From the NCBI RefSeq assembly GCF_030684315.1, contig NC_081396.1:2418001-2482000 (forward strand): 64,000 bases of DNA, in the 5' to 3' direction. Numbering within the stretch: the stretch's first letter is position 1; every line of letters starts with the position of its first letter. Source of the DNA: Stegostoma tigrinum (lineage: Eukaryota). The position numbers and the translations under genes are program-made. Shown here piece after piece: positions 353 through 64,000 of the stretch. The notes beneath the pieces were generated by a model that was not told the origin of the DNA, did no database searches, and saw only the letters and a program-made list of their open reading frames with translations.

Positions 353-1480
353 GAGGTGGGATGAGGTTAGTAGGTAGATGGGGGTGCGGCTTGGGGTGGG
401 AGGAAGGGATGGGTGAGAGGAAGAACAGGTTAGGGAGGCGGAGACAGGTTGGACTGGTTTTGGGATGCAGTGGGTGGAGTGGAGGAGCTGGGCTGGTTGT
501 GTGGTGCAGTAGGGGGAGGGGACGAACTGGGCTGGTTTAGGGATGCATTTGGGGAAGGGGAGATTTTGAAGCTGGTGAAGTCCACATTGATACCATTAGG
601 CTGCAGGGTTCCCAGGCGGAATATGAGTTGCTGTTCCTGCAACCTTCGGGTGGCATCATTGTGGCACTGCAGAAGGCCCATGATGGACATGTCATCTAAA
701 GAATGGGAGGGGGAGTGGAAATGGTTTGCGACTGACTGAGAGGTGCAGTTGTTTGTTGCGAACTGAGCGGAGGTGTTCTGCAAAGCGGTCTCCAAGCCTC
801 CGCTTGGTTTCCCCAACGTAGAGGAAGCCACACCGGGTACAGTGGATGCAGTATACCACATTGGCAGATGTGCAGGTGAACCTCTGCTTAATGTGGAATG
901 TCATCTTGGGGCCTGGGATAGGGGTGAGGGGGGAGGTGTGGGGGCAAGTGTAGCATTTCCTGCGGTTGCAGGGGAAGGTGCTGGGTGTGGTGGGGTTGGA
1001 GGGCAGTGTGGAGCGAACAAGGGAGTCATGGAGAGAGTGGTCTCTCCGGAAAGCAGACAGGGGTGGGGATGGAAAAATGTCTTGGGTGGTGGGGTCGGAT
1101 TGTAGATGGCGGAAGTGTCGGAGGATGATGCGTTGTATCCGGAGGTTGGTGGGGTGGTGTGTGAGAACGAGGGGGATCCTCTTTGGGTGGTTGTGGCGGG
1201 GGCGGGGTGTGAGAGACGTGTTGCGGGAAATATGGGAGACGCGGTCGAGGGCGTTCTCGATCACTGTGGGGGGAAAGTTGCGGTCCTTGAAGAATTTGGA
1301 CATCTGGGATGTGTGGGAGTGGAATGTCTTGTCGTGGGAGCAGATGCGGCGGAGGCGGAGAAATTGGGAATAGGGGATGGAATTTTTGCAGAAGGGTGGG
1401 TGGGAGGAGGTGTATTCTAGGTAGCTGTGGGAGTCGGTGGGCTTGAAATGGACATCAGTTACAAGCTGGTTGCCTGAGAT
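353..1480 (-). mobile_element. Penelope-like retroelement (family 1), truncated at both ends, frameshifted
   Basis: RT thumb motif VHFKPTDSHSYLEYTSSHP, Cys linker CNRRKCYTC, and GIY-YIG endonuclease NVVYCIHCTRCGFLYVGETKRRLGDRFAEH (ORF 692-1303). A 4-bp duplication (actgactg, about 731) shifts the frame into ORF 430-861 (LGTLQPNGINVDF). Confidence 0.9.
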
Positions 1481-4590: not shown

Positions 4591-4794
4591 AGACATTGGT
4601 GCCTGCTGGAGAAACTCAGCAAGTCTGACAGCATCTGTAGAGAGAGAAAAACAAAAGATAAAGTCTCCAGTCTAATCTGGCACTTCTTTGGAACCGAGTT
4701 TTCCATCTGGGTTGTTTTCCTAAAATCCCTCCTTTGATCACATTAATAGTGTTCATCCCCAGTCTGGTTACAGTAATTCATCTTTTTATTTCTT

Positions 4795-6187: not shown

Positions 6188-7606
6188 TTATTGCACTTCC
6201 TGCAGTGTCACATTTAAATGGTTTGCTTTCTTCCCAGTGTGAACTCGCTGGTGCCTCAGTAGGATGGATGACTGAGTGAATCTCTTCCCACACTTGGAGC
6301 AGCTGAATGGCCTTTCCCCAGTGTGAACCCGCTGGTGAGTCAGCAGATTGAATGACTGTGCGAATGTCCTCCCGCACTCTGTACAGGAGAATGGCCTCTC
6401 CCCAGTGTGTGTTCGCTGGTGGACAGTGAGCTCAGATGATGACCTGAATCTATTCTCGCACTGGAAGCATCTGAAAGGTTTCTCGTCAGTGTGAATGCGT
6501 TGATGGGAAATCAGCTTCCCTGAACTTTTAAAGCAGTTTCCACACACTGAGCATTTAAAAGGTCTCTTGTCAGTGTGAACTTGTTGATGGGACATCAGAT
6601 CCCCTGAACTTTTATAGCATTTCCCACAGTTTAAACATCCAAAAGGTCTCTCATCAGTGTGAACTCGTTGATGGGACATTAGTTCCCCTGAACTTTTATA
6701 GCACTTTCCACAGTCCGGGCACTTAAAAGGTTTCTCCTCAGTGTGAATACGTTGATGGCGTACCAGTTCCCCTGAGCGTTTAAAGCAATTCCCACATTCT
6801 GGGCATTTAAAAGGTCTCTTGTCAGTGTGAACACGTTGATGGTTCATCAATGCCCCAGAACTTTTAAAGCACTTCCCACAGTCTCTGCATTTAAAAGGTC
6901 TCTCGTCAGTGTGAACACGTCGATGGGATACCAGTTCACTGGAACCTTTATAGCCCTTCCCACAATCTGGACATCTAAATGGTCTCTCGTCAGTGTGAAC
7001 ACGCCGATGAGACATCAGATTGCTGGAACTTCTATAGCACTTCTCGCAGTCTGGGCATTTGAAGGGTCTCTCTCCTGTGTGAACACGTTGGTGGCGCATC
7101 TGTTCCCCAAAACTTTTATAGCCCTTCCCACAGTCTGGACATCTAAATGGTCTCTCCCCAGTGTGCGTATGTTGATGGGACAGCAGTTCCCTGGAACTTT
7201 TATAACACTTCTCACAGTCCAGGCATTTAAAAGGTCTCTCATCAGTGTGAACTCTTTGGTGGGACATCAGATTGCTCGAACTTTTAAAGCACTTGCCACA
7301 GTCTGGACATTTAAAAGGTCTCTCCTCAGTGTGAACACGATGGTGGGACATCAGGGTGGATGACTGAGTGAATCCCTTCCCACACTTGGAGCAGGTGAAT
7401 GGCCTCTCCCCCGTGTGACTGTGTTGGTGAATTTCCAGCTCCGATGGGGATCTGAATCCTTTCTCACAATCTCCACATTTCCATGGTTTCTTCCCAGTCT
7501 GATTGCGCTTGTGGCTTGTGAGGTCAGATAACTGACTGAAGCCTTGTCCATGCTCAGGACATGCGTATAGCTTCTCGCCAGGGAGAATAGTGTTTTCTCT
7601 TTCCAT
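6188..7606 (-). CDS. C2H2 zinc-finger protein, 15 intact fingers plus 1 degenerate, no KRAB
   Basis: Open 474-codon frame. First ATG at 7606 (MERENT; the track start is TTG). Tandem CxxC-x12-HxxxH with TGERPF/TDERPF linkers. Confidence 0.9.
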
Positions 7607-10600: not shown

Positions 10601-11539
10601 ACTGTACCTGCTTTAGTGTTCTCTGGAAATTTTAATCTTCTGCTCAGTTCACCCAATTTAAGATCACTTTGCTCTATTGAGAAGAGAAATGGTCCCATGA
10701 CCGACCCTGAGGGTCACAACTATTTATATCACTTCCTCTGCGAAAACTCTATTTTGCCACTCTTTTCATATATTTATAAAGAAGATTGGTATTCCCTTGC
10801 AAATTAATTGTTAGTATCATTCCATACTCCCTTTCTGCCTCTCCACCATTCATTCCAATCTCTCTGAAACATCGATTTTCAATAAGGTTCTCAACCGTAT
10901 TTTCTCCTGTCTGTAACAAACACACTTCTTCTGGCTGTCTTAATTTTTATCTCTTGTCATTTATAAAGCTCTAACTTCCTTTGCCCTACTTTTTGATTGT
11001 GTCTGAAATACTTCTTTTTCAAAAGGTAGTCAATTATTCAATTACATTCTTTTCCTCGCAACATTTGACTCAATTATTTTTGGCACAGCGTTGTTCTTAC
11101 TAAATTAAAAATGAGATTCAGAGACCATACAGGATAGAAGAGACCCTTTGGTCATCAAGTCAGTAATATCAGATCTAACTAAATCAACACTTGTAACGCT
11201 GTCCAGTCCCAAGTCCAGAGCTTTGAACATCATGACATTTCACTCACTCATCAAAGTACTTTGTAAAAGTTGTGAGGTTACCCACATCAACTCATCTCCC
11301 AGGGAGTGCATTGCAGACACCCACCACCATCTGGGGGAAACATTTTCCCCTCAAATCCCTTTTAAGCCCTTCACTTAAAATTATGTCCCATTATTATCGA
11401 CTAAGAGGACTGAATTGGCTTTACACAGTTAATGATTTGTACACTGCATTGTTCAGCATCATTTTCATAATTAGCTGTCAAAAACTTTTGACACAATGAT
11501 TATCACTTCTTAAATGCCCAACTAACACTTCACCCTCTT

Positions 11540-11683
11540 CTCCGCCTCCCCCTCTCTCCTCATTTATTCCAGAACCCTCACCCCATCCCCCTCTCTGATG
11601 AATGGTCTAGGCGCGAAATGTCAGCTTTTGTACTCCTGAGATGCTGCTGGGCCTGTTGTATTCATCCAGCCTCACATTTTATT
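11540..11683 (+). mobile_element. PLE family 1 terminal-repeat fragment with degenerate hammerhead motif
   Basis: Matches 34402-34585. Core ctgatga...gaaatgtc at 11595-11622 has stem II and stem III substitutions. Confidence 0.8.
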
Positions 11684-12024
11684 ACCACGTCCAGTATTGC
11701 CTCCTTTCACATTGGACTAAAATCACAACCTGGGACAGAGTCGCCGACCCACACCAAATGGCCTGCAGTGATGCAAGAAAACATCGCTCCAACACCTCGT
11801 CGAAGTCTATTAGGAATGACTGATAGATATTGGCCAATTCAGCAAGGCCTGGTCCTCCGAAACAAACAAACGTAAGCTATGAATATGTTCCTGAAAACGT
11901 TTTAGGAAGTCTTGTCCTGTTGTGCAAGCACATTTCAGTGTAATTTTCTTCCTAATCTTATTGATTATCATCCTCAGCCTACATCAGAGCAAACAAAACT
12001 CACCAACACAAGAAACCCCCAACA

Positions 12025-13035: not shown

Positions 13036-13540
13036 TAAATATTCTGGTTTTGTTAGGAAGGTTCCTTTTGCACCTCTTAATGTTTTGTTACTCTTTTGAC
13101 TTATTTTGGTTTGTTTGGATCAGGTTTCTAGAAGAACAGGAATGTTCCAATGAAACTGCAATTGTCTGTTCTGATTTTCTGTTTTGTACCGATAGTGAGG
13201 GCTTTTGTTATCTTGTTTCACAAGGTACTGGAAGAAGATTGCAGACTGGATATTCAATCCAAGCGTCACACCTACACCTGTGAGAATCACTCGATTTATT
13301 CATTCTGAATGTTATCAGCCTCTGACTATAGAAGAAATGGTTTCTGTTCTCTTCAAAGGAGAAGATATCAAATGTCAATCTGACTAGAAAAGCAACAAAA
13401 CTGATAAACAGACCTGAGTGAGAGTGTTCTGTTAAACATCCTGAAAAAAAGTCACATATTTGCGGCAGAGAGAAACTGTACATGTGTGGGTGAGGTTTCA
13501 ACTGATCATCCAAACTGGAGAGAAAAAAGGACGTTGTGCA

Positions 13541-14689
13541 ATGGAGAAACCATGGAAATGTGGTGACTGTGGGAAGGGATTCAATTACCCATCTCAACTG
13601 GAAGTTCATCGCCGCAGTCACACTGGGGAGAGGCCATTCACCTGCTCTGTTTGTGGGAAGGGTTTCACCCATTCATACAACCTGCTGACACACCAACGAG
13701 TTCACACTGAGGAGAGGCCATTCGCCTGTCCTGTGTGTGGGAAGGGATTTGCTCGATCATCCCACATTGTGACTCACCAACTTGTCCACACTGATAAGAG
13801 ACCATTTCAATGCCCAAACTGTGAGAAGAGTTTTAAATGCAGAAAGGATCTGATGATACATCAACGTATCCACACTGGGGAGAGGCCATTCACCTGCTCA
13901 GTCTGTGGGATGGCATTCACTCAGTCATCCCACCTTCAGACGCATCAACTGGCTCATTCTGATAACAAACTTTTTAACTGTTCTAACTGCGAGAAGAGCT
14001 TTAAAAGCAAAAAGGACCTGCTGACACACCAGTATACTCATACAGGAGAGAGGCCATTCACCTGCTCTGTGTGTGGGAAGGGATTCACTCGTCCATCTGG
14101 CCTGCTGTATCACCAGCGGATTCACACAGGGGAGAGACCATTCACCTGCTCTGTATGTGGGAAGGGATTCATTAATTCATCCAACCTTTTGATACACCAG
14201 CAACTCCACACAGGAGATAGACCTTTCACCTGCCCTGATTGTGGGAAGGGATTCACCCGTTCATGTAACCTTCTGACACATCAGCAGGTTCACACAAAGG
14301 AGAAACCTTTCACCTGCCCTGTGTGTGGGAAGGGATTCACGCGATCCTCCAACCTAATGAATCACCAACGAGTTCACTCTGGAGAGAGGCCATTCACTTG
14401 TCCAACGTGTGGGAAGGGATTCAGTCAGTCATCCAACCTGCAGACACACCAGAAGATCCACACTGGGGAGAGGCCATTTACCTGCTCTGAGTGTGGGAAG
14501 GAATTTTCTCATTCATCCTACCTGGTGAAACACCAGCGAGTTCACACTGGCGAGAGGCCGTTCACCTGTAATGTCTGTGGCAAGGGATTCATTCAGTCGT
14601 CCCATCTACTAACACACCAGCGAGTTCATAAGCAACTGCAGTGTTTGGATTCTGCACTTGCTGATGCTGCTAAACATATCCAGGACTGA
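13541..14689 (+). CDS. C2H2 zinc-finger protein, 13 fingers, no KRAB
   Basis: Open frame from ATG 13541 ([10 protein letters not shown]; the track start 13460 is TTG). 13 canonical fingers and tail [19 protein letters not shown]. Confidence 0.9.
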
Positions 14690-20130: not shown

Positions 20131-20622
20131 CGATAGGGGTTTGATTCTAGTGATCTTACTGCCCTCATCATAGCCAGGACTGAACTAGCAAGTTATACCT
20201 GAGCAGTGCAAGAAATGTCCCAGCCGCTTTCTTCCATGGTTTAGGGGTCCTAGACATTGGCCAGATGATCCTTTACAACTGTGTTTAGAGTCAGAAATAA
20301 CAACGCTGAAGGCTGAAAAAGTGCTATCAAATCGCAGATTAGCATTGAAATATGACCTTTTCTGACTGGAAGTGAATTAATAGGTTCATTGGTAAGTAGA
20401 AAACATGAACAAAAGCCTTCCATTGCTAATATGTAATCTTTCAGCCTTTTCTAAGGAAAAGAGCTTCAGACTTTCATGGTTATTACAAGATATCCCTTTA
20501 TGTGATATTCGTGGTTTAACATTTACTTTCCTTGTCCTTGTGAATTATGACAGCAGCAGAAATATTTCATATCTGAGGGATTTCAGTTTGGGCTATTTGC
20601 ATTTACAACATTTTCAGATTTT

Positions 20623-20751
20623 CTGAATAAGGGTCTAGGCCCGAAACGTCAGCTTTCCTGTTCCTCTGATGCGGCTTGGCCTGCTGTGTTCATCCAGCTC
20701 TACACCTTGTTATCTCAGATTTTCCAGCATCTGCAGTTCCTACTATCTCTG
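20623..20751 (+). mobile_element. Solo PLE terminal repeat with hammerhead-like motif (core mutated to ctgaata)
   Basis: ctgaataagggtctaggcccgaaacgtcagc...ttatctcagattttccagcatctgcagttcctactatctctg, colinear with 24453-24586. Confidence 0.8.
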
Positions 20752-24250: not shown

Positions 24251-24452
24251 TACAATATAAACAGGCAATCACCTCTTGCATACTCGAAATCTGCTACAGT
24301 TCTTTGCAGCCTTTCAGTGTGAAGTTGCACAACTAACGTGAATGAAAGTTGGAGTGGTAAACGATTGACCATCCGCTCAGAACTGAGCAATATTGCCAAA
24401 CTCAGAGAACCACACAGACAATCCAGGGAGTACACATTGAGGGATGATATGT

Positions 24453-24586
24453 GATCAGAGATAATGGGAACTGCAGACGCTGGAGAATCCAAGATAACAA
24501 AGTGTGAAGCTGGATGAACACAGCAGGCCAAGCCGCATCTTAGGGGCACAAAAGCTGACGTTTCGGGCCTAGACCCTTCATCAGAA
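24453..24586 (-). mobile_element. Stand-alone 134-bp PLE terminal-repeat insertion with intact hammerhead motif and 14-bp TSD
   Basis: TSD gagggatgatatgt at 24439-24452 and 24587-24600. Insert reads ttCTGATGAagggtctaggcccGAAAcGTCagc...cccattatctctgatc. Confidence 0.9.
24557..24584 (-). ncRNA. Minimal type I hammerhead ribozyme motif
   Basis: CUGAUGA, stem II GGG/CCC, GAAA, palindromic ACGU stem III, GUC triplet. Stem I is only 2 bp. Confidence 0.6.
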
Positions 24587-25229
24587 GAGGGATGATATGT
24601 CACCATCTCAGCAATCAGTACGCTCAGCAACTGAGGATTCACAGATTAGAGAATTCCAAAGATTCACAGCAATTTGAGTGAAAATTATGCCCCACTTTTA
24701 ATACTAAATGGCTTACACATGATGAAGAGAATGTAAGGCCATTTCTGGACAAACCATTCAGGGATAAACACCTTCTGTGCAACAACACTGTCAAACTATT
24801 TCTGAATTTTAGACAACTCAATAAGATGTTGTCCAAAACTCGAGAGAGAACAGGCACATCTTATCTCACCTCCATGTCAACCATTTCATCTCATGGGCCA
24901 GTTCAGTGGACGTGTTAGCAGAGGGGCAACTAACCAAGAGAAGAAACTCAGGAAAAAGATGGAGGTCATTGGACCTGGTAAGCTGCTTTGAAAGAGCAGT
25001 TGAGGTTCATTGATGAGGAGTGAGATTGTGCCAGCGAAAACAGCTGGAAGTAAAATCTATCCTATGACTATCCATATTTTCTCTCTCACCACTGTCTCTA
25101 CCATCAGTGCTTGTCAGTACAGTCACTCGTAGAGTTTTTTTTATAGTATGGCCTCAATGTCATCAAACATCCATTTGTTTAATACCATTTTTCAGCATTT
25201 GGCCTTGTAAATTTTCCAGTGTTCCTCTA

Positions 25230-27738: not shown

Positions 27739-28860
27739 TCATTTATGAACTCGCTGGTGTCTCAGCAGGTTGGATGAGTGAGTAAATCCCTTACCACAAT
27801 CCATGCAGGAGAATGGCCTCTCTCCAGTGTGACTGCGTTGGTGTACAATGAGGTCAGATGATCGCTTAAACCCAGCCCCGCAGTGAGAGCACCTGAAAGG
27901 TCTCTCCTCAGTATGAACACGCTGATGGCGTGTCAGCTCACCAGAACTTTTAAAACACTTTCCACAGTCTGGACATGCAAATGCTCTCACCTCTGTGTGA
28001 ACATGTTGGTGGAGAATCAGTACCCTGGAACTTTTAAAGGACTTCCCACAGTCTGAACATTCAAAAGGTCTCTTGTCAGTGTGAACCAGCCGATGTGTGA
28101 AAAGGTGGGATGACTGAGTGAACCCCTTCCCACAATCGCTGCAGGTGAATGGTCTCTCTCCAGTGTGAATTCGCTGGTGTTTAGTGAGTTGAGATGATTG
28201 CCTGAACCCAGTCCCACATTGAGAACACCTGAATGGTCTCTTGTCAGTGTGAACATGTTGATGGGATGTGAGATTGCTGGAACGTTTAAAGCACATCCCA
28301 CACTCTGGACATTTAAAAGGTCTCTCATCAGTGTGAACACGTAGATGGGACATCAATTCTCCTGAACTTTTATAGCATTTCTCACAGTCTGGGCATTTAA
28401 ACGGTCTCTCCTCTGTGTGAACACGTTGATGGGACATTAGTTCCCCTGAACTTTTAAAGCATTTGCCACAGTCCGGACACTGAAAAGGTCTCTCATCAGT
28501 GTGAACACGTAGATGAGACATCAGACTGCTGGCACTTTTATAACACTTCTCACATTCTGGACATTTAAAAGGTCTGTCTTCAGTGTGAACCCACTGGTGT
28601 CTCAGCAGGCTTGATGAATGAGTGAATCCCTTCCCACACTGAGAGCAGATTAACGGTCTCTCTTTGATGTGAACCCACTGGTGTCGCAGAAGATGGGCTG
28701 ACCGAGTGAATCCCATCCCACACTCTGAGCAGATGAACACTTTCACGCCAGTATAACTGCATTTGTGATTTGTGAGGCCAGCTGATTGACTGAAGGCTTG
28801 TCCACACACACAGCACATGTACGGCTTCTCCCCACTGTGAGCGGGACTTGTCCATTCCAT
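27739..28860 (-). CDS. C2H2 zinc-finger protein, 12 intact fingers plus 1 degenerate, no KRAB
   Basis: Open frame with first ATG at 28860 ([13 protein letters not shown]), ending HQRVHK*. Confidence 0.9.
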
Positions 28861-29919
28861 GTTCAAAATCTGATGAATTTCTGATTATGGCGAATGTGGT
28901 GCCTCTCTGAGATCCTGATGTGATGTTTGGTTTGAGGTTCCTGATGGCAAATCCTCCTTCTCTAATACCCTGTGAAGTTTATTTAGAACAGAATAGTGTG
29001 AAAGAGAAGAGAATTGACAAAAACACAAAGGGAAGTTATGAAATGGAGCTGAAAGAGTCTGGCAATTTCTGGGGCAGACACTAGAAAGAAGTGACCACAA
29101 AAGCTACCAGTTTGTTAAAGAAAACAAACATGCCACCCAGTCTGGACTACACAAGGCTTTGGCTTCAACGGTGGAAGGAGAGAAGGGAGAACAAGAAAGA
29201 GAGAGAGAGAGAACTGGGGAGAAAGAGTGTATGAGAGGGGTGAATCAAAGAGAAAGTACAGAGGGGAACAGAATGTGTGCAGCAGCGATGAGAGAAAGTG
29301 TAGCCGGGAAGCGGAGCCAGATTGTGAGAAGGGTGGCCACAATGTGAAGTGTGCGACAGCCAGAGAGGGGAATCGGTGTGAGAGCATGAGGAGGGAGCGA
29401 GGAAGAGGATAAAAGGGAATCTAAGAGAATGAGGCAGTAGTCAGTATATTATAGAGGGAGGGAATCAGGAGGATTGACCTTTCGCCCACTGTCCGTCTCC
29501 TGGTCACTGGGAACCTGACGCCCCACCCACTCATATGACACCATCAAGTGGATCGTGTGTCCACTGGTTTCCCCCTGAACCTGTTTACCAGAAAATGCCC
29601 TGCAGCTGCAAGCATGGCTCCTTCAGCATCTAATTCAGTATTTCAGGCCTCCCCAACTCACACCTCCATTCCTTTCCTCACCTGCCCTACCCCAACTTCC
29701 TCACCGTGGCTCCATTCCCTACCCCGCTATCCCCTGTCCACCACATCATTAATGATTACTCTGCCATGTATCTTCTTTTAAAGTGATTTTGACACTTCTC
29801 TTCCTTGTGGAAATACCCTGAGATTAGATTTCTGGATGGTTATAGGAATAGGAAGGGTTTAAAGGGAAAGGGACCAAAAGCTGCAAATGGGACTGGATTA
29901 ATTTAGGATTCTTTTTAGA

Positions 29920-31035
29920 ATGGAGTGTTGTAACTAGTGCTGTTCCACAGGGATCAGTGTGAGAACTTTGCTTTTTGTGGTTTAGAGAAATGATTTGGGA
30001 GAAAACTTAGCCGGTCTAATTAGTAAGTTTGCAGATGATACAAAGTCTGGTGGAGTTGCGGATAGTGAGGAGGATTGTCAGAGGATACAGCAAGGCATAG
30101 ATCAGTTGGAGGTGTGGGCAGAAAAAACGGCAGATGAAGCTCAATCCAGACAAATTGCATTTTGGAAGGTCAATTGTGGGTGAAATTTACACAGTGAATG
30201 GCAGAACCATTAGCAGAGGGATCTGAGTGTGCGGGTCCACAGATTATTGAAGGCACTGGCACAAGTAGATAAAGTAGTAAGAAAAACACCTATGTCATGC
30301 TTGCCTTCATTAGAAGGTGCATTGGGTACAAGGATAAGCAAGTTATGCTGCAGATTTATAGAATTTTAGTTAGGCCACACTTGGAATATAGTACAGTCTG
30401 GTCACCACCCTACCAGAAGAATGTGGATGCTTTGGAGAGGGTACAGAAAAGGTTTACCAGGATGTTGCCTGGTATGAGGGATTTTAGCCATTAAGAAAGG
30501 TTGGATAGACTGGGAGACAATAAGGACTGCAGATGCTGGAAGCCAGAGTCTATAGATGTGAGGCTGGAATAGCACAGCAGGTCAGACAGCATGAAAGGAG
30601 CAGGAAAGTCAGGTTTCGTGCCAAAACCCTTCGTCAGGACTCCGATTGGGTTTGTTTTCACTGGAATGTAGAAAGTTGAGGGGAAACCGGATAGAAGTTT
30701 GTAAGTTTGTGAATGGCATGGATACAGTGAAAAGTATGAGGAGTTTTCCCAGGGTGAAGGGGGACACAGGCTCAAGATGCGAAGGAGGGGGTTGGGTGGG
30801 GGCGGTGCATTTTTAAGGAAATGTGCAAGGCACATTTTCCACACACAGAGTGGTGAGTGCCTGGAACACATTGCCAGAGGACGTGGTGGAAGCAGATGCA
30901 AGAGCAGCATTGAAGGAGCACCTGGATGAATTCATGAAGAGGAAGGGAATAGAGGCATAGGAATCCGGTAAGTGAAGACAGTTTTTGCATAGAAGTGCAA
31001 AATGTGTCATTGCAGGCCTGAAGAGCCAGTTCTGT
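29920..31035 (+). mobile_element. CR1 LINE 3' fragment interrupted by a solo PLE repeat
   Basis: ISKFADDTK, LVRPHLEY and ALERVQKRFTRMLPG in shifted frames. Confidence 0.85.
30515..30643 (-). mobile_element. Solo hammerhead-bearing repeat (variant 2) inserted into CR1
   Basis: Minus strand AGTC-CTGACGA-agggttttggcac-GAAA-cct-GACT. Flanks gactggg (30508-30514) and gattggg (30644-30650). Confidence 0.75.
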
Positions 31036-31680: not shown

Positions 31681-31817
31681 TAAAAACTAAAAGAACTGTG
31701 CGTGCTGGAAATCAGAAACAAAAAGAGAAGTTTCTGGATGAACTCAGCAGGTCTGGCAGCATCTGTGGAGAGAAATCAGAGTTAACGTTTTGTGTCAGGT
31801 GACCCTTCCTCAATACT
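31681..31817 (-). mobile_element. Solo hammerhead-bearing repeat (variant 3), degenerate
   Basis: Minus strand agta-ttgagga-agggtcacctgacac-aaaa-cgtt-aact-ctgatttctctccacagatgctgccagacctgctgag. Same family as 62065-62160. Confidence 0.65.
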
Positions 31818-32820: not shown

Positions 32821-33961
32821 GATAATGGGAACTGCAGATAATGGAGAATCTAAGATTCTTCAAAGACCGCAACTTTCCCCCCGCAGCGGTCGAGAATGCC
32901 CTTGACCGCGTCTCCCGCATTTTCCGCAACACATCCCTCACACCCCGCCCCCGCCAAAACGGCCCCAGGAGGATCCCCCTCGTTCTCACACACCACCCCC
33001 CGCCAACCTCCGGATACAACGTGTCATCCTCCGACACTTCCGCCATCTACAATCCGACCCCACCACCCAAGACATTTTTCCATCCCCACCCCTGTCTGCC
33101 TTCCGGAAAGACCACACTCTCCGTGACTCCCTTGTCTGCTCCATACTCCCCTCCATCCCCACCACACCCGGCACCTTCCGCTGCAACCGCAGGAAATGCT
33201 ACACTTGCCCCCACACTTCCTCCCTCACCCCCATCCCAGGCCTCAAGATGACTTTCCACATCAAGCAGATGTTCACCTGCACATCTGCCAATGTGGTATA
33301 TTGTATCCATTGCACCCGGTATGGCTACCTCTACATTGGGGAAACCAAGCGGAGGCTTGGGGACCGCTTTGTAGAACACCTCTGCTCGGTTCGCAATAAA
33401 CAACTGCACCTCCCAGTCGCAAACCATTTCAACTCCCCCTCCCATTCCTCAGACGACATGTCCATCATGGGCCTCCTGCACTGCCACAATGATACCATCC
33501 GAAGGTTGCAGGAACAACAACTCATATTCTGCTTGGGAACCCTGCAGCCCAATGGTATCAATGTGGACTTCAGAAGCTTCAAAATCTCTCCTTCCCCCAC
33601 TGCATCCCAAAACCAGCCCAGCCTGTCTCTGCTTCCCTAACCTGCTCTTCCTCTTACCCATCCCTTCCTCCCACCTCAAGCCGCACCTCCATTTCCTATC
33701 TACCACCTCATCCCGCCTCCTTGGCCTGTCCATCTTCCCTGGACTGACCTATCCCCTCCCTACCTCCTCACCTATACTGTCCTCTCCACCTATCTTCTTT
33801 TCTCTCCATCTTCAGTCTGCCTCCCCCTCTCTCCCTATTTATTCCAGTTCCTTCTCCCCATCCCCCTCTCTGTTGAAGTGTCTAGGCTCGACACGTCAGC
33901 TTTTGTGCTCCTGAGATGCTGCTTGGCCTGCTGTGTTCATCCAGCTCCACACCTTGTTATC
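32821..33961 (+). mobile_element. Penelope-like element (family 1), 5'-truncated with inverted tail; degenerate hammerhead at 33870-33897
   Basis: FFKDRNFPP... then a frameshift, then GIY-YIG ORF 33248-33640 (VYCIHCTRYGYLYIGETKRRL). 32821-32856 is an inverted copy of the repeat tail. Ends ttgttatc. Confidence 0.9.
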
Positions 33962-34401: not shown

Positions 34402-34585
34402 TCTCCTCTCCAGCTATCTTCTCCTCTATCCATCTTCGGTCCGCCTCCCCCTCTCTCCCTATTTATTCCAGAACCCTCTCCCCATCCCCCTCTCTGATGA
34501 AGGGCCTAGGCCCGAAACGTCAGCTTTTGTGCTCCTGAGATGCTGTTTGGCCTGCTGTGTTCATCCAGCTCCACACTTTGTTATC
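34402..34585 (+). mobile_element. PLE family 1 3' terminal fragment
   Basis: Near-identical to the reverse complement of 47613-47795. Ends ttgttatc. Confidence 0.85.
34494..34521 (+). ncRNA. Minimal type I hammerhead ribozyme motif (intact core)
   Basis: CTGATGA a GGGCCTAGGCCC GAAA c GTC. Confidence 0.6.
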
Positions 34586-38084: not shown

Positions 38085-38207
38085 CAATGCAGTGTAGAGC
38101 TGGAGGAACACAGGCCAACCAGCATCAGAGGAGCAGGGAGGTGGACGTTTCGGGTTTACACCACACTGGATTGACTTTGACTCCAACATATGGAGTTCTT
38201 GCTGTCT
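38085..38207. mobile_element. Mini PLE-repeat insertion with internal inversion and degenerate 13-bp TSD
   Basis: Minus segment ...ggacgtttcggg (cccGAAAcGTC) followed by a plus-strand tail. Flanks gcagacttagcag (38072-38084) and gcagatttagaag (38208-38220). Confidence 0.6.
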
Positions 38208-42370: not shown

Positions 42371-42847
42371 ACTTCTTCATCCTTGAGAGGGGTTGTAGTG
42401 TATGGGGAGAAAACAGGAACAGGGTTGAGTTGTAAATCTATAAAATTCAAGTCCTTCATGTGTACGTCTTCCACCTCTATCTCTTTCTGACGTTTTTTTT
42501 GTGCCAACACAGACTGGTTCTTTTCCCAGAAGGAGCTTTACGAACCAGTTCAGTTTTAATGATAATCCCAGTTTCCCTCGATGTCATTTCCACAACTGAA
42601 GAGATTAATTGCTGTCAGGTTCACAACCTGTGTGTTGTTCTGGTTTTCCTGATACAGTTATTTTCTGTTTGAAAGGTTGATTTGTAATTAGAGACTTCAG
42701 GTGAAACCATCTCCAGATCCAACAGTCACTCTGTTTATCAAATCTAATTTTCTCAGGATTTTGAACATTGAAGGAAATAGCTCCATTCACACCGGGGAGA
42801 AACACATATCGTCCGTGTGTAGAAGAGTCTATGAAGATTCATCTGAG

Positions 42848-44422
42848 ATGTCCAAACAACAGCACAATCACACTGGGGAGAGCCTTTTCAAATGTGGGAA
42901 TTGCGGGAAGGGATTTCTTTACCAATCCCAGCTGGAAAATCATCAACGCAGTCACACTGGGGAGAAGCCATTCACCTGCTCTGATTGTGGGATGGGATTC
43001 AGTCAGTCATCCAACCTGCGGATCCACCAGTGGGTTCACACAGGGGAGAGGCCATTGACCTGTACTGAATGTGGAAAAGGATTCACTCACTCATCCAAAC
43101 TGCTGGAACACCAGCGGGTTCACACTGGAGAGAGACCATTCACCTGCTCCATTTGTGGGAAAGCATTCGCGCAGTCATCCAACCTGCTGATACACCAGCG
43201 AATTCACAGGAGAGAGAAACCATTCACCTGTTCTGAATGTGGCAAAGGATTCACTCACTCATCTAAACTGTTGGAACACCAGGGAGCTCACACAGGGGAG
43301 AGACCATTCACCTGTTCTGAATGTGGGAAAGGATTCACTCACTCATCTAAACTACTGCAACACCAGCGTGTTCACAATGGAGAGAGGCCATTCACCTGCT
43401 CTGATTGTGGGAAAGGATTCACACACTCATCTAAACTGCTGGAACACCGGGGAGTTCACAGTGGGGAGAGACCATTCACCTGCTCTGCTTGTGGGAAAAA
43501 ATTCACTCGGTCATCCAGTCTGCAGATACACCAGCGAGTTCACACGGGGGAGAGGCCATTCACCTGCCCCAATTGTGGGAAGGCATTTGCTCAGTCATCC
43601 AACCTGCTGATACACCAACGAGTTCACACTGGGGAGAAACCGTTTACCTGCTCCCAGTGTGGGAAGGGATTCACTCAGTCATCCAGCCTTCGGATACACC
43701 AGCGAGTTCATACTGGGGAGAAACCATTCACTTGCTCTGACTGTGGGAAGGGTTTCACTTCGTCATCCAGCCTGTTGAAACACCAAGGAGTTCATACAGG
43801 AGAGAGAGCATTCACCTGTTCTGAATGTGGAAAAGCATTCATTCACTCATCTAAACTACTGGAACACCAGGGCGTTCATACTGGCGAGAGACCATTCACC
43901 TGTTCTGAATGTGGGAAAGGATTCACTCACTCATCTAAACTGCTGGAGCACCAGCGAGTTCACACAGGGGAGAGACCATTCACCTGTTCTGAATGTGGAA
44001 AAGGATTCATTCGCTCATCTAATCTCCTGGAACACCAGCGAGTTCACACCGGGGAGAGACCATTCACTTGTTCTGAATGTGGAAAAGGATTCATTCGCTC
44101 ATCTAAACTGCTGGAACATCAACAGGTTCATACCAGAGAGAAATCATTCACCTGCACCGCTTGTGGGAAGGGATTTACCCAATCATCCAACCTGCTGAGG
44201 CACCAGCGAGTACACACTGGGGAGAAACCATTCATCTGCTCTGATTGTGGGAAAGCATTCGCGCAGTCAACGATCCTGCTCATACACCAACGAATTCACA
44301 GGAGAGAGAGACCCTACACGTGCTCCGACTGTGGGAAGGGATTCACCCAATCATCCAACCTGCGGAGACATCAGAGAGTTCACGCTGGGGAGAAACATTC
44401 ATTCAGTCAACTCACCTGTTGA
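42848..44422 (+). CDS. C2H2 zinc-finger protein, 18 fingers, no KRAB
   Basis: Open frame from 42701 (GTG). First in-frame ATG at 42848. 18 canonical fingers. The true start may come from an upstream exon. Confidence 0.9.
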
Positions 44423-47612: not shown

Positions 47613-48621
47613 GATAATAAAATGTGAGGCTGGATGAACACAGCAGGCCAAGCAGCATCTCAGGAGCACAAAAGCTGACGTTTCGGGCCTAGACCCTTCA
47701 TCAGAGAGGGGGATGGGGGGAGGGAACTGGAATAAATAGGGAGAGAGGGGGAGGCGGACCGAAGATGGAGAGTAAAGAAGATAGGTGGAGAGGGTGTAGG
47801 TGGGGAGGTAGGGAGGGGATAGGTCAGTCCAGGGAAGACGGACAGGTCAAGGAGGTGGGATGAGGTTAGTAGGTAGCTGGGGGTGCGGCTTGGGGTGGGA
47901 GGAAGGGATGGGTGAGAGGAAGAACCGGTTAGGGAGGCAGAGACAGGTTGGACTGGTTTTGGGATGCAGTGGGTGGGGGGGAAGAGCTGGGCTGGTTGTG
48001 TGGTGCAGTGGGGGGAGGGGATGAACTGGGCTGGTTGAGGGATGCAGTGGGGGAAGGGGAGATTTTGAAACTGGTGAAGTCCACATTGATACCATATGGC
48101 TGCAGGGTTCCCAGGCGGAATATGAGTTGCTGTTCCTGCAACCTTCGGGTGGCATCATGGTGGCAGTGCAGGAGGCCCATGATGGACATGTCATCAAGAG
48201 AATGGGAGGGGGAGTGGAAATGGTTTGCGACTGGGAGGTGCAGTTGTTTGTTGCGAACTGAGCGGAGGTGTTCTGCAAAGCGGTCCCCAAGCCTCCGCTT
48301 GGTTTCCCCAATGTAGAGAAAGCCGCACCGGGTACAGTGGATGCAGTATACCACATTGGCAGATGTGCAGGTGAACCTCTGCTTAATGTGGAATGTCATC
48401 TTGGGGCCTGGGATGGGGGTGAGGGAGGAGGTGTGGGGACAAGTGTAGCATTTCCTGCGGTTGCAGGGGAAGGTGCCGGGTGTGGTGGGGTTGGAGGGCA
48501 GTGTGGAGCGAACAAGGGAGTCACGGAGAGAGTGGTCTCTCCGGAAAGCAGACAGGGGTGGGGATGGAAAAATGTCTTGGGTGGTGGGGTCGGATTGTAA
48601 ATGGCGGAAGTGTCGGAGGAT
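47613..48621 (-). mobile_element. Penelope-like element (family 1), 5'-truncated, with open GIY-YIG region and complete 3' repeat
   Basis: ILRHFRHLQSDP...NVVYCIHCTRCGFLYIGETKRRL...GINVDF, stop at 47929. 3' repeat ends ttattatc at 47613. Confidence 0.92.
47677..47704 (-). ncRNA. Minimal type I hammerhead ribozyme motif (intact core) in the PLE 3' repeat
   Basis: CTGATGA a GGG tctagg CCC GAAA c GTC. Confidence 0.6.
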
Positions 48622-48990: not shown

Positions 48991-49023
48991 GCACCCCTCC
49001 AAAACCCCATAGAGGAAAGGGAG

Positions 49024-49235
49024 TGAGGAACTGCAGATTTTGGAGAATCCAAGATAATAAAGTGTGAAGCTGGATGAACACAGCAGGCCAAGCAGCATCT
49101 CAGGAGCACAAAAGCTGACGTTTCGGGCCTAGACCCTTGCTCTCTGATGAAGGTCCTAGGCCCGAAACGTCAGCTTTTGTGCTCCTGAGATGCTGCTTGG
49201 CCTGCTGTGTTCATCCAGCTTCACACTTTATTATC
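49024..49235. mobile_element. Mini PLE insertion made of two inverted terminal repeats, 13-bp TSD, hammerhead motif at 49144-49171
   Basis: Perfect 80-bp inverted arms 49053-49132 and 49156-49235. TSD agaggaaagggag at 49011-49023 and 49236-49248. Confidence 0.92.
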
Positions 49236-50079
49236 AGAGGAAAGGGAGAACAGTTTCAAAAGCCTCATTTTCGTCTAGGTTATGTGAGAGCACAGGGTTT
49301 GTGAATTTTCTTGACAAAGAAGAACCGCAACAAGCGCTCAAGCACAATCAGAAGGTGTATGGGATCAGGCCCTGACTGTGGAAGGATTGAGTTTAATTCT
49401 GTCTGTGGGTCAGACGTGGAAAATGTGTAAATAGGGAGCAAAGACCATAGAGAAATTTGAAAACAAGAATGGAAATTTTAAAATTGAGGCTTTGCTGAGC
49501 AGAGGGCCTTAAATTTCTCGAAATATTTATTGATGGATCGTAGGCATTGCCACTTGGAACAGCATTGATTTATCATATCAGGTGTTCTAGAGGTGCTGGG
49601 GCCATGGACCACATCTGTGATGTTTGACTGCCCAATGGGGAGGGGGCTGGGTAAATAAGAGGAACTTCTCTTGGAGTTGCAATGTGTTAATTTAGAACAG
49701 ATGTGCAACAAGAAACTGGCATTCACTCTTGTAACTATCGTCTTTTCTGTGGTCTTGTCTGAGCCCAAGTAGCTTGGGAGAGGGAGCATGCCATGTCCAC
49801 GAGTATGATTAATTCCTTCATAACCATTGAGCACTGCTGAAGCATAGACTCTGGGGATAACTTTCTGGATTAGTTGGAAAGGCTCCTGTTACTTTCCTTG
49901 GGCATTTTGTGCAGATTTTGTTTTCTTCGAATTTGCTTGAACAATATTTGGAGAATTGAAATGGGGAAGAATTTTCCACGAAAACTAGAATGATGTCTTT
50001 TTAACATGTATCCTTGACTGATAGTGAGACTGATGTTGAGAAAGTCTTTTTCCAATGTATAAAATGAGATCTCATTTTG

Positions 50080-56957: not shown

Positions 56958-58588
56958 ACATAGAACATAGAACATTACAGCACAGTACAGGCCCTTCGGT
57001 CCTCGATGCTGTGCCGACCTGTCATACGGATCTCAAGCCCATCTAACCTACACTATTCCATGTACATCCATATGCTTATCCAAAGACGACTTAAATGTAC
57101 CTAAAGTTGGAGAATCTACTAACGTTGCAGGCAAAGCGTTCTATTCCTTTACTACTCTCTGAGTAAAGAAACTACCTCTGACATCTGCCCTATATCTTTC
57201 ACCCCTCAATTTAAAGCTATGCCCCCTCGTGCTCGCCGTCACCATCCTAGGAAAAAGGCTTTCCCTATCCACCCTATCTAACCCTCTGATTATTTTATAT
57301 GTTTCAATTAAGTCACCTCTCAACCTTCTTCTCTCTAACGAAAACAGCCTCAAGCCCCTCAGCCTTTCCTCGTAAGACCTTCCGTCCATACCAGGCAACA
57401 TCCTAGTAAATCTCCTCTGCACCCTTTCCAAAGCTTCCACATCCTTCTTATAATGCTGACCAGAACTGTACACAATACTCCAAGTGCGGCCGCACAAGAG
57501 TTTTGTACAGCTTCACCATAACCTCTTGGTTTCGGATCTCGATCCCTCTATTAATAAAAGCTAAAACACTGTATGCCTTCTTAACAGCCTGTCAGCCTGG
57601 GTGGCAACTTTCAAGGATCTGTGTACACGGGCACTGAGATCTCTCTGCTCATCTACACTACTAAGAATCTTACCATTAGCCCTGTACTTTGCCTTCCGGT
57701 TACTCCTACCAAAGTGCATCACCTCACACTTGTCCGCATTAAACTCCATTTGCCACCTCTCAGCCCAGCTCTGCAGCTTATCTATGTCCCTCTGCAACCT
57801 ACAGCATCCTTCGTCACTATCCACAACTCCACCGACCTTAGTGTTGTCTGAAAATTTACTAACCCATCCTTCTACGCCCTCATCCAGGTCATTTATAAAA
57901 ATGACAAACAGCAGTGGACCCAACACTGACCCTTGCGGTACACCACTAGTAACTGGTCTCCAGGATGAACATTTCCCATCAACTACCAACCTCTGTCTTC
58001 TTTCAGCAAGCCAATTTTCGATCCAAACTGCTATATCTCCCACAATCCCATTCCTCTGCATTTTGTACAATAGCCTATTGTGGGGAACCTTATCGAACGC
58101 CTTGCTGAAATCCATATACACCACATCAACCGGTTTACTCTCATCTACCTGTTTGGTCACCTTCTCAAAGAACTCAATAAGGTTTGTGGGGCACGACCTT
58201 CCCTTCACAAAACCGTGCTGACTATCCCTAATCAATTTATTCTTTTCTAGATGATTATAAATCCTATCCCTTGTAACCTTTTCTAACACTTTACCAACAA
58301 CTGAGGTAAGGCTCACTGGTCTATAATTACCAGGGTTGTCTCTACGCCCCTTCTTGAACAGGGGAACCACATTTGCTGTCCTCCAGTCATCTGGCACTAT
58401 TCCTGCAGACAATGACGAGTTAAAGATCAATGCCAAAGGCTCGACAATCTCCTCCCTGGCTTCCCAGAGGATCCTAGGATAAATCCCATCTGGCCCAGGA
58501 AACTTATCTATCTTCACCCTCTGAAGGATTTCTAATACTTCTTCCTTGTGAACCTCAATCCCACCTACTCTAGTAGCCTGTATTTCAT
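56958..58588 (-). mobile_element. Young 5'-truncated CR1/HER1-type LINE
   Basis: ORFs 57561-58517 (NYRPVSLTS, DFSKAFD, GVPQGSVLGP, SKFSDNTK) and 57141-57497 separated by frameshifts. 3' tail (atagaac)n at 56958-56975. Confidence 0.95.
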
Positions 58589-59661
58589 CTCTTTACTCCT
58601 GCCACACTCAGAAGGTAAGTTTTCCTGAATAATTGCAGACAAGGTCTCACTCCTTACATTACTGCGTCGATGTGATCTTCAAAAGAAAAATAAGGTAAAC
58701 TCACATCTTCTCGAGACTGTGCAACTGTAGATTCTTTGTGAACGGGTCCAATTACTTCTGGTTATATTCTGCTCAAAGATGCCTCTGCCATATACAAATC
58801 TGTAAAGGTGATAGGATCATTTCGGCACTATTGTTTTCATTGTTCAACTTTCCATGTTGAAATAATATGATTTCCCACATCATTGAGGTTATATTTGTTC
58901 GAAAATAAATGAATCAAATGCTGTGCATTTACAGCAGTTACAGCAGCGTCCATTTCCACGGATGCTAGAGGCTCTATTAAACATTTTGATCGTATTCTGG
59001 TGACTTCGTCTTTTTAATTCTTTTGTTCTTGGATTTATTTTTCGCAGCTGAGTAATGTATTTTATGTCTGGTACATTAGAGATGAGATGAATAAGTCCAC
59101 ATTACAGAAGGCATAGATCACGCCAAAATTTTGAGAGAATGTGGAATTGTTCCTGACTGTTCCATTCTGTGTGGACTGGTCCAGTTCAGCGCGCCTGTGC
59201 GAATTTTGAACTAGTCCATTAATCTTCTAGCTATCTTCAAGATTTCGTTTTCAGATGCCGCATACGGCTGTGACATTTCCCCACCGTCAATGAAGGGACC
59301 AATCGTCGTGTCATCTACAAGTGTAATTTTCTCACCACTGTCCACCCCGCCCCCTAACACGCGCACATTTTCTTCTCTATTATTTATATATGTCACGAAA
59401 GGCTGCAATTTAATTGTTACACAGTCCCAACATTTTTAACAGATGAATTTGTACAAGGATATTGGGGAAAGAGTGACTGAGGAACAATAGGCTACTGAGC
59501 AAGGCAGAAACGAGCACTGCTACTTTAGTAGGAATATGGTGATGGGGTAGTGGAATTGTTAGCTTTCAAGTCTACTAAATTGAAGACAGAAGAGAGGACT
59601 GACCTATTTTGCCAAAGCGACCATGGGTGGATGATCTCAGAATGGCAGGGCTTTCTCTACT

Positions 59662-62064: not shown

Positions 62065-62160
62065 GAAAACAGAATTTGCTGGAACAACTCAGCCAGTCTG
62101 GCAGCATCTGTGAAGAGAAATCACATTTAACGGTTTGGGTCCATTGACCCTTCCTCAGAA
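62065..62160 (-). mobile_element. Solo hammerhead-bearing repeat (variant 3)
   Basis: CTGAGGA a GGGTC aatg GACCC aaac cgtt: 5-bp stem II intact, GAAA box mutated. Confidence 0.65.
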
Positions 62161-62379
62161 TGAATTATCCAGTCAGAATGTGGATTTCAGGGTGAAGGCA
62201 GGCAAATGGTCGCTATTGGAATCTGCTGCCTCAATCATTTATGAAGCATTACATTCACACGGTGGGTAAAGATTTCAACTCGTGTGACTATGCCTCTGGG
62301 AGCAGAGGCTGTGTGCAACATGGTCAAGAACGAGAAGAGATTGGATATAAAAGGTTGTAGCTATAATAGCTGTACTGCT

Positions 62380-63290
62380 TTATTGTTTAAATAACTTAAC
62401 TATGTGATTTAATGGATAGTTCATCACAGTCTTTAACTCTTCTCTGAATTTACTCTGGGTGCCTGCATAAATGCAAGGGTTGATACAGGAACTCAATAAC
62501 TGAAGCATGAATCCACTTTCATCTAGAATAAAATTAGAATTGGTAAAATCTGTACCTGAGAAATAAGTGACTCTCGCAATTCTGACATAGAGAAACGTTA
62601 CAAGAACCAACAAGTATAACAGGATGAAATTGCCTGAGACACAGAACAGTAAAATAATCGATTTCTTCCGGTTCTCTATTTCAGAGTCAATCTGATCTTT
62701 TCCTTTGGTCTGGATCCTCAGTCTCCTGCGGGCTCTGTTGGCCACTAGAATGTGCCTGATAGTCAAAGAATTTAGCAGTATGATTAAAGCGAATGGGAGA
62801 CAAGGAGTCAAAATGTGATGAATCCAATCATATGCAGTCCATGCTGGTGATGTATAAAATATAGATTTTATGTTGCAGAACCAGGGAACATTGTTAATTG
62901 TGTACAGAGGTTCATATATAAAATACAAGAATGTATTTTTTACACAGCTTAGTGTACAAGCTGCAGCTATGACACGAGCTGCCGTCTTTGTAGTGCAATA
63001 TTTAATTTGCAGCTGCTGGAAACAAATGGCTATAAATCGATCGAAGGTAAAAGCGACAGTTAACCACACAGAACTGTCTATGATAGCGTAGTTTAGCACT
63101 GAACGGAAACTACATACTGGTGTGATCATCAGGAAGCTGACTGGGAAATAAATACCAGAAATCCGATTGAATATCACTGCCGTGATCATCACCAGGAGAT
63201 CTGACACTGCCATGGATACCAGATAATACGTAATACATCTGGAAAGACCGCATCTTCCTCGTGCCAAGATCATAATCACTGCCAAGTTAG
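62380..63290 (-). CDS. Class A GPCR, GPR139/GPR142-like; main coding exon (end of TM1 to C-terminus)
   Basis: MAVSDLLV (TM2), SVWLTVAFTFDRFIAIC (DRF), PWFC, LPFALIILLN and SCINPCIY. Acceptor ctttcaattacag ends at 63291. First exon not identified. Confidence 0.85.
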
Positions 63291-64000
63291 CTGTAATTGA
63301 AAGGGAGAGATCGAGAGATTTTGATGAAAAATGAAGTTTTGTTTTTACATCTATGACAAGGAAGCTACAAATCATGACATTTACACGTGCCTTTTGACCA
63401 CTGGCACATGAAACTGAGCTGGAACACATCACTTGTGCTGTTGCCATCACCTATGTTTGTAATAAAAATTATGATCAAACCTAAGACCAACATTGGCACA
63501 CCGGTAGAATAGTGAAGCAAAAGGTAAAAGTGCTTATGATAGCAATAAAAACAGTTAAATCGACATAGGGGCAGGAAATCGAAAAGGAAAATAATATTTG
63601 TTGTAGAACTGGTCAAAGCTTGATGGAGAAAGTGCGAGTCACTCAGGTTAAAGAATTATCAAAAGGTGAAGGTGGTAACATTCACGCACACAAATGGCCG
63701 CTACCGGGATCAAATAAGGAGGAGGAATGCAGTCCTGATGCTTGATTGAAGACCCAGCACTTAGCAACATGACACAGACGTCTCTGATTGGAAGAAGGCG
63801 CTAAGAGGCTCGGCAATTAAACAGAGAGGATTGAAAATCTGCAACGCATCTCGAGAGAATGATGTGGCTTTTTCGGTTTTGGACTGGGATGGACAGGGAC
63901 AGAAATTACACGATAGAAGATTATAGTCTAACAGGTTTATTTGAAAACACAAGCTTTATTGACCTTCAGAAAATAATCGTGCTCGAGACAACAAAGAAAC

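Follow-up and report, generated by a model that had tools for sequence, protein, structure and literature searches.

The hammerhead-like motif that recurs across the 64-kb stretch of DNA analysed here (the window) is almost certainly a minimal type I hammerhead ribozyme carried in the terminal repeat (pLTR) of a young Neptune-type Penelope-like retrotransposon. The genome holds about 150,000 exact cores and the family is very young, with many open frames at 98-99% identity. The ends of its copies provide a sharp and testable map of the likely transcription start site, cut site and two priming sites.

A scan of both strands for CTGANGA, together with a BLAST search of the repeat against the window, recovered 11 of the 11 hammerhead copies listed in the initial annotation, and every coordinate checks out (Table 1). 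Three of the four cores it had called intact, 47677-47704(-), 24557-24584(-) and 34494-34521(+), are letter-perfect matches to CTGATGA-A-(helix II)-GAAA-CG-TC with a paired helix II. The word was slightly too strong for the fourth, 49144-49171(+), which keeps all core letters but has a T-C mismatch in helix II and fails the helix-pairing descriptor. The degenerate copies at 11595, 20623, 30637(-), 31813(-), 33870, about 38146(-) and 62158(-) carry a core or CpG change or have lost their 5' half. Two pieces had been missed, namely a twelfth partial arm lacking CTGATGA at 49027-49138(-) and a tail-only fragment at 4606-4645. Several sequence variants do exist, with four sub-families in the window rather than the three originally described: F1a (6 copies), F1b (20623 and 38146), F2 (30637) and F3 (31813 and 62158). 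The stems hold at the family level as first named, helix I being CT/AG in F1a (only 2 bp, as had been remarked), GTC/GAC in F2 and GTT/AAC in F3, and helix II being GGGT/GCCC around CTAG in F1 and GGGTC/GACCC in F3. The F1 helix II of 47677-47704(-) is almost self-complementary over 12 nt, and fully so in the 34494 copy, and could pair two molecules. All in all, the window copies are probably inert, truncated daughters that bear no sign of selection. An apparent fixed 5' end at window position 1480 reflects the truncation of that one copy.

Table 1. Hammerhead-bearing and related insertions of Penelope-like elements in the window (positions within the 64-kb stretch; pLTR, terminal repeat; F1a to F3, sub-families)
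Feature	Position	Strand	Remarks
Minimal hammerhead core, F1a	47677..47704	-	CUGAUGA, extra A, helix II, GAAA, palindromic ACGU, C17
Predicted cut	between 47677 and 47676	-	from standard hammerhead layout
Helix I 5' strand, 2 bp	47705..47706	-	partner AG = 47675-47676
Putative transcription start	47708..47709	-	5' ends of homologous copies pile up here
TATA-like box TATTTAT	47732..47738	-	29-30 nt before the putative start; putative promoter
Leader after cut site, to short-tail end (+63)	47613..47676	-	end = putative first reverse-transcription start, by analogy with the element of PMC11167929 (partial text)
Penelope-like ORF 3' remnant	47929..48621	-	CX4CxxC linker and GIY-YIG endonuclease; Pfam GIY-YIG E 5e-4, below cut-off
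Whole 5'-truncated insertion, 1009 nt	47613..48621	-	99.4% identical to near-complete copy, locus L033
Head-to-head palindromic mini-insertion	49024..49235	.	arms 49027-49138(-), long-tail, without CUGAUGA, and 49140-49235(+), short-tail, with core 49144-49171; 13-bp target duplication 49011-49023 / 49236-49248
Long-tail mini-insertion	24453..24586	-	starts 2 nt before intact core 24557-24584; 14-bp target duplication 24439-24452 / 24587-24600
F1a pLTR fragment	34405..34585	+	TATA-like box and intact core 34494-34521
Older 5'-truncated F1 copy	32855..33961	+	endonuclease remnant, 3' UTR, decayed core at 33870
F1a pLTR fragment	11530..11684	+	decayed hammerhead at 11595
F1b long-tail mini-copy	20622..20751	+	start = core; G8 mutated
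F2 copy, decayed	30514..30641	-	helix I AGTC/GACT
F3 copy	31721..31817	-	starts about 4 nt before decayed core
F3 copy	62066..62161	-	starts just before core at 62158; GAAA half decayed
F1b-type partial copy	38091..38162	-	without CUGANGA
F1 ORF fragment	353..1480	-	RT thumb, linker, endonuclease; no pLTR

The initial annotation had placed the hammerhead inside a Penelope-like terminal repeat, and this placement is borne out. A GIY-YIG remnant lies 225 nt upstream of the core at 47704(-), on the sense strand, and full-length elements carry two direct copies of the repeat. A target-site duplication was looked for at the insertion 47613-48621(-) and none was found. Its ORF remnant (47929-48621) matches an open 1092-aa frame from another part of the genome at 99.5% identity, and the copy that matches the whole insertion at 99.4% over 1009 nt holds reverse transcriptase and GIY-YIG endonuclease within one frame (Pfam RVT_1 E 4e-5, GIY-YIG E 0.03 to 5e-4, both below Pfam cut-offs). 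The parent ORF has an RYIDD motif and frames of about 1090 aa; a search of solved structures gave no match to it. Among 20 fetched loci with long frames, 10 have the order pLTR-ORF-pLTR, with direct cores about 3.6-3.7 kb apart on the ORF strand, frames of 1078-1114 aa and a core 130 nt before the frame; one locus has three tandem cores. A search with the N-terminal part of the ORF returned 17,329 candidates, and since the 150 that were scored are 97-100% identical and many of their frames are open, near 1,090 aa, the family must be young. The linker CNRRKCYTC (CX4CxxC) stands between reverse transcriptase and endonuclease in F1. The Neptune name is given provisionally by this linker and by the reported vertebrate distribution of the clade; Nematis shares the linker (PMC8557442, partial text). 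F3 belongs to a related family, with 42-63% protein identity to F1. F4, on the other hand, lacks the linker and its GIY-YIG domain is about 36-48% identical, and is therefore taken to be Penelope/Poseidon-type; it was found at loci L248-L277 and not in the window, and has a minimal hammerhead of its own with 8,195 pattern matches. A non-LTR retrozyme, built of short non-coding tandem repeats, was rejected as the source, as the copies in the window are scattered or inverted and come from a coding element.

It could be argued that the likeness to a hammerhead is a chance pattern within one abundant repeat. An Rfam scan, one of the checks that had been proposed, matched no hammerhead family in the window at E values up to 5 (its miRNA-like matches are the palindrome at 49 kb), and the bulk of the genome-wide count comes from one family, both of which would suit such an origin. 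The count itself speaks otherwise. The core pattern CTGANGANGN{6,24}CGAAACGTH, which specifies exact core letters and leaves helix pairing outside its criteria, matches 75,740 + 76,026 = 151,766 times against 89 for a reversed control, and a narrower Neptune-type pattern 123,520 times against 0. A relaxed descriptor gives 115 matches in 832 kb versus 3-6 in each of five shuffles, and tail-anchored BLAST finds 353 copies in 1,132 kb, which extrapolates to about 1 million pLTR remnants genome-wide. The full core is furthermore common to families with unrelated flanks and endonucleases only about 40% identical, at the same place behind the ORF, and its helices covary. Chance resemblance thus has a negligible probability and is rated as refuted.

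The covariation of the stems across families, which the initial annotation had proposed as a check, is indeed found, and the core persists while helices I and II change. The set comprises 21 hand-picked natural copies, which are related rows and for which helix II was a selection criterion and helix I was not. All 21 copies keep the first pair of helix I, which occurs as four pair types, and 20 keep the second, the outer two being lost in F1, and helix II is 95% paired. Paired cells amount to 87%, as against 59% in shuffles and 17-43% in slid controls, and the covariation score was reached by none of 500 shuffles. The G10.1-C11.1 pair is GC in 17 copies and GU in 4, a single unpaired base follows A9 in all families, and helix III is a palindromic ACGU with no loop. 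F3 has U at position 17, where F1 and F4 have C. In F2 and F3 (for example at L236:1545-1584 and L173:1228-1264) a 6-nt palindrome is centred on the cut site, as the 5' strand of helix I recurs in the cleavage triplet; the cut site of F4 is not palindromic.

Conservation within the main family can be followed by numbering the first base after the predicted cut as 0, so that the F1 core starts at -28. Among F1a copies spanning the core, 43/54 keep all 11 core letters, and 10 young full-length elements do not differ at any of 4185 compared bases between -33 and +59, versus 0.9% differences upstream, 28 of the 93 positions in that region having been preselected. In inserted copies the core is not clearly more conserved than the tail (non-CpG changes 15/540 versus 110/2862; CpG sites 24/216). 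Host-level selection on single copies was rejected on the ground that the core decays about as fast as the tail. As the fold is kept across families while inserted cores are not extra conserved, selection acts in the active lineages and not on the copies. In about 20 of 100 listed rows the core may have been lost by short-homology deletion.

The 5' ends of the copies point, with high probability, to transcription starting 4-5 nt before the hammerhead core. Among the first 100 listed intact-core copies, 29 have their 5' end between -28 and -34, and the interval from -35 to -77 contains none, as counted by eye. An unbiased sample was drawn from 108 unselected stretches (1,132 kb), in which the end histograms for F2, F4 and F5 are thin. 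Here, the 123 F1 copies of at least 88% identity include 25 with 5' ends at -34 to -28, 5 at -59 to -35, 6 at -289 to -60, 38 past -290 and 46 elsewhere between -27 and +40, and 32 of 65 F3 copies end at -36 to -28. The pile-up lies 0-6 nt before the core, and the ends mark this pre-core point and not the cut site. Target duplications were found to flank 7 copies, and 6 of these, among them the one at 24584 in the window, have their 5' end no more than 5 nt from the core; an extra 5' G, examined as a trace of cap copying, is present in 1 of the 7.

A TATA-like word stands 34 nt before the core in 39/81 F1a copies, 33 nt in 8/39 F3 and 47 nt in 19/34 F4 (totals that include truncated copies), that is, 29-30 nt upstream of the pile-up of each family. 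In F3, TATAAA lies 29 nt before the A of TCAGTT and is kept in 23/100 rows; in F4, GATAAATA lies 30 nt before a smaller pile-up (about 8/100 rows), itself 17 nt ahead of the core. TCAGTT, CCATTT (F1b) and CCAGTC (F2) presumably fit the initiator consensus. We infer from these ends and spacings a Pol II start, such that in Neptune-type families the first bases of the RNA would be the 5' strand of helix I. Two other causes of the pile-up were rejected: cleavage upstream of the core, for which no UH triplet fits all families while the TATA spacing does, and stalling at a C-rich tract, which F3 and F4 lack while still showing the pile-up. In the predicted F4 fold the 17-nt leader covers the CUGAUGA core, to which it is complementary, a possible off switch; a similar leader is seen in the older F5. 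Hundreds of thousands of TATA-bearing fragments may matter for host transcription.

Full-length copies behave differently from the short ones. The template sample consists of 72 distinct loci out of 150 listed matches. In 30 of these loci the copy extends through the upstream core, and in the other 42 it is truncated on the downstream side of the cut. None of the 30 stops at -28 to -34 or at 0, compared with 29 stops at -28 to -34 among the 100 listed intact-core copies (Fisher p 3e-4); their ends range from -40 to -2061, are nearly all different, and in two cases lie beyond the fetched stretch. End-to-end copying of a linear RNA that begins at the start site was rejected as their source, as such copies would stop at about -33 without a promoter and none does. 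The absence of stops at the start site therefore indicates that long copies likely come from a more-than-unit template, be it a circle, a repeat jump or a read-through RNA, and this pattern of ends suggests that the template was probably a cut-and-ligated circle.

In a rival account, the motif would be kept as a protein-binding or folding signal, or as a rare cutter, and long copies would arise without it. Reverse transcriptase could jump across the shared 95-135 nt, leaving the capped 5' end for the 3' repeat, or transcripts could read through parental tandems. We regard this as unlikely, even though an efficient jump would likewise predict 0/30 stops. Comparison of the two repeats of one element cuts both ways. 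Rare alleles are common to both in 3 of 8 elements, which speaks for one circle read twice, but the upstream partial copy has more private changes than its downstream counterpart (10 versus 2, p 0.04, leaving out a 4-nt block at one junction), a bias that a circle copied twice would explain less well than parental-tandem read-through. Descent from a small number of parental tandems is, however, hard to square with full-length 5' ends that are nearly all different.

In favour of cleavage, copies beginning exactly at the cut site (0) number 3,095, against 167 at -2 and 481 at +2. Among 100 listed rows at 0, however, 63 are AGCT-centred palindromes and 10 are microhomology inversions, leaving about 840 versus the 481 at +2; the peak is mostly explicable by microhomology and the excess there is weak. 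Only 3 of the 123 F1 ends in the random sample fall at -1 to +1, as would be expected of a motif that rarely or never cuts. Against such a motif, inversions in 54 listed loci are centred 9 times on the AGCT at the cut, whereas three other 4-nt palindromes serve as the centre 1, 3 and 2 times. Two non-inverted copies (L157 and L159) start at the predicted cut beside short target-like repeats and are candidate insertions from cut RNA.

Predicted folding also weighs on the side of a signal or rare cutter, as the inactive fold is strongly favoured in the youngest and most successful family. In F1a the core is predicted to pair with bases across the cut site at -11.4 kcal/mol, compared with -3.6 for helices I and II, and the first helix I pair has a predicted probability below 1e-4, the favoured fold being an inactive hairpin. 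For dimers, the predicted energies of the double hammerhead and of the best dimer fold are -5.5 and -38 in F1a, and less unfavourably -16.3 and -26.2 in F3 and -16.7 and -38.1 in F4. These values ignore tertiary contacts and protein, and fit both a low activity seen only in dimers (PMC4209133) and protein dependence (PMC11167929), as given in the available parts of these papers. The partial text of the latter also describes uncut RNA as the main substrate in vitro of the anole element, ribozyme mutants without effect on insertion in vitro and no RNA-seq reads ending at the cut, and Naiad elements are described as thriving without canonical hammerheads (PMC8557442, partial text). Nonetheless, Neptune-type and Penelope/Poseidon-type families have retained all catalytic letters and, through compensatory change, both helices, something that a mere binding site would not call for.

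Cleavage could alternatively serve as a brake, with the ribozyme clipping the capped first 32-34 nt from transcripts of full-length elements and of the many solo promoters, limiting translation or stability, and taking no part in making the template. The geometry is suggestive, with the core directly behind the putative start where a cut would take off the cap, and the upstream TATA-like box is kept in about 70 of the 100 listed intact-core copies. Moreover, in a plant retrozyme the LTR transcript has its 5' part cut off in vivo by the hammerhead (PMC12029980, partial text). A brake would, however, leave the 0/30 stops unexplained. In solo copies the hammerhead lacks a cis partner, and the core decays about as quickly as the tail; a brake is the more improbable of the two alternatives in which the motif is real.

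The preferred account, to which we give an even chance as a whole, has element RNA starting from the TATA-like promoter 4-5 nt before the core, at helix I. To cut, the two hammerhead copies of the element would have to act as a dimer with help from protein, and the unit RNA so released would be ligated into a circle and reverse-transcribed round from internal tail sites. Short copies with a 5' end directly ahead of the core would derive from capped RNA that stayed uncut and was primed within its leader. Taken singly, the cut-and-circle route to long copies falls just below an even chance. More tentative again is a complete reading of the fossil record, in which the two ribozymes would remove a capped head and a 3' trailer, the resulting 3.6-kb circle would be ligated, and a dimeric RT-endonuclease would prime both DNA ends from two tail sites, read round the circle and regenerate the promoter.

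The 3' ends point to two likely priming sites. In the 1,132-kb sample they fall mainly at +59 to +73 or at +96 to +106. Head-to-head pairs consist of one short-tail and one long-tail arm in 20 of 23 cases versus 49% expected (p 2e-4), the window palindrome at 49024-49235 being such a pair; the other three have one intermediate end, one over-long arm and two short arms, respectively. From this arrangement we infer that both broken DNA ends would act in priming. The same window palindrome and another at L006:4388-4620, about 110 kb apart on one contig, have the same central junction, probably by segmental duplication.

The remainder of the window contains a cluster of C2H2 zinc-finger genes with 84-bp repeats at 6188-7630(-), 13445-14689(+), 27739-28884(-) and 42692-44422(+), along with decayed copies near 2.3, 19.7, 22.5, 26.1, 35.8 and 50.6 kb, and the zinc-finger linker codons produce many false CTGANGA matches. 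An intronless 356-aa frame at 62380-63450(-) looks by eye like a G-protein-coupled receptor (DRF motif, several hydrophobic segments). LINE reverse-transcriptase remnants, which we take to be CR1-like, lie at 57561-58592(-) and about 38.9-40.7 kb, and a long CA/GA-rich simple repeat with three N stretches occupies 16.8-18.6 kb.

Much of the framework is already known. As far as the available text of Cervera and De la Pena 2014 (PMC4209133) goes, the kind of ribozyme, the dimer model, the proposal of a circular template and a 2-bp helix I, reported for Drosophila virilis, were all set out there, and tails, inverted copies and pLTR promoters have been described as well (partial texts of PMC8557442, PMC3846280, PMC2377424 and PMC6765202). 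What is new here is the start-site map, the 0/30 result and the short/long arm rule. A literature search of mainly open-access papers returned none tying the start site to helix I or testing the template by copy ends. Like the minimal hammerheads of metazoan Penelope-like elements (PMC4209133), those described here are type I, lack a helix III loop, have a palindromic 15.2-16.2, an extra base after A9 and G10.1-C11.1, and occur mostly as solo copies in several families. They differ in a helix II of 4-6 bp, self-complementary in F1, versus 7-8 in Schistosoma, and in number, with 151,766 exact cores versus about 4,000 in coelacanth and 9,000 in Xenopus. The text and one supplement file of that paper include no cartilaginous fish and do not describe start-site geometry; retrozymes in one cartilaginous fish appear in the available part of a 2026 preprint (10.64898/2026.07.22.740005).

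Closer parallels exist for the element itself. The Neptune clade (Craig et al. 2021, PMC8557442, partial text) shares the C-terminal GIY-YIG domain, a CX2-5CxxC linker, partial tandems, an inverted 5'-truncated copy and a tail, and partial pLTR tandems, an inverted 5' copy and a 30-40 nt tail were all found here. In the available account of Poseidon PAc of the green anole (Frangieh et al. 2024, PMC11167929), two internal reverse-transcription starts likewise define a 30-40 nt tail, both DNA strands are extended and the hammerhead lies upstream; the corresponding priming sites here would be +63 and about +100. The PAc ORF starts inside the ribozyme, whereas the first ATG here comes about 140 nt after the cut, and the short/long arm rule (20/23) is a genomic count from the present analysis. 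Penelope pLTR promoters similarly start transcription within the pLTR, and a TATA and initiator pair was noted in a rotifer pLTR (Arkhipova 2013, PMC3846280; Schostak 2008, PMC2377424); the D. virilis Penelope has a TATA-less internal promoter, unlike the TATA-like box here, and the available parts of these two papers do not tie the start to hammerhead helix I or to copy ends.

Retrozymes offer the last comparison, again from partial texts. The non-LTR retrozymes of axolotl (PMC7229834) share a very high hammerhead number (126,247 canonical) and show the dimer-dependent cleavage and circular RNA that are proposed here, and plant LTR retrozymes (PMC12029980) have an upstream Pol II promoter and lose their 5' part by cleavage. 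Both are non-coding with canonical hammerheads, whereas the present element is an autonomous RT-endonuclease element. The axolotl figure is the highest published count found; the 151,766 cores exceed it, at a density about tenfold higher (3.2 Gb here versus 28 Gb). The job of Penelope-like hammerheads has been described as still unclear (PMC8557442, partial text), and the complete reading of the fossil record, if true, would give them a defined one, in the genome with the highest hammerhead count found in print.
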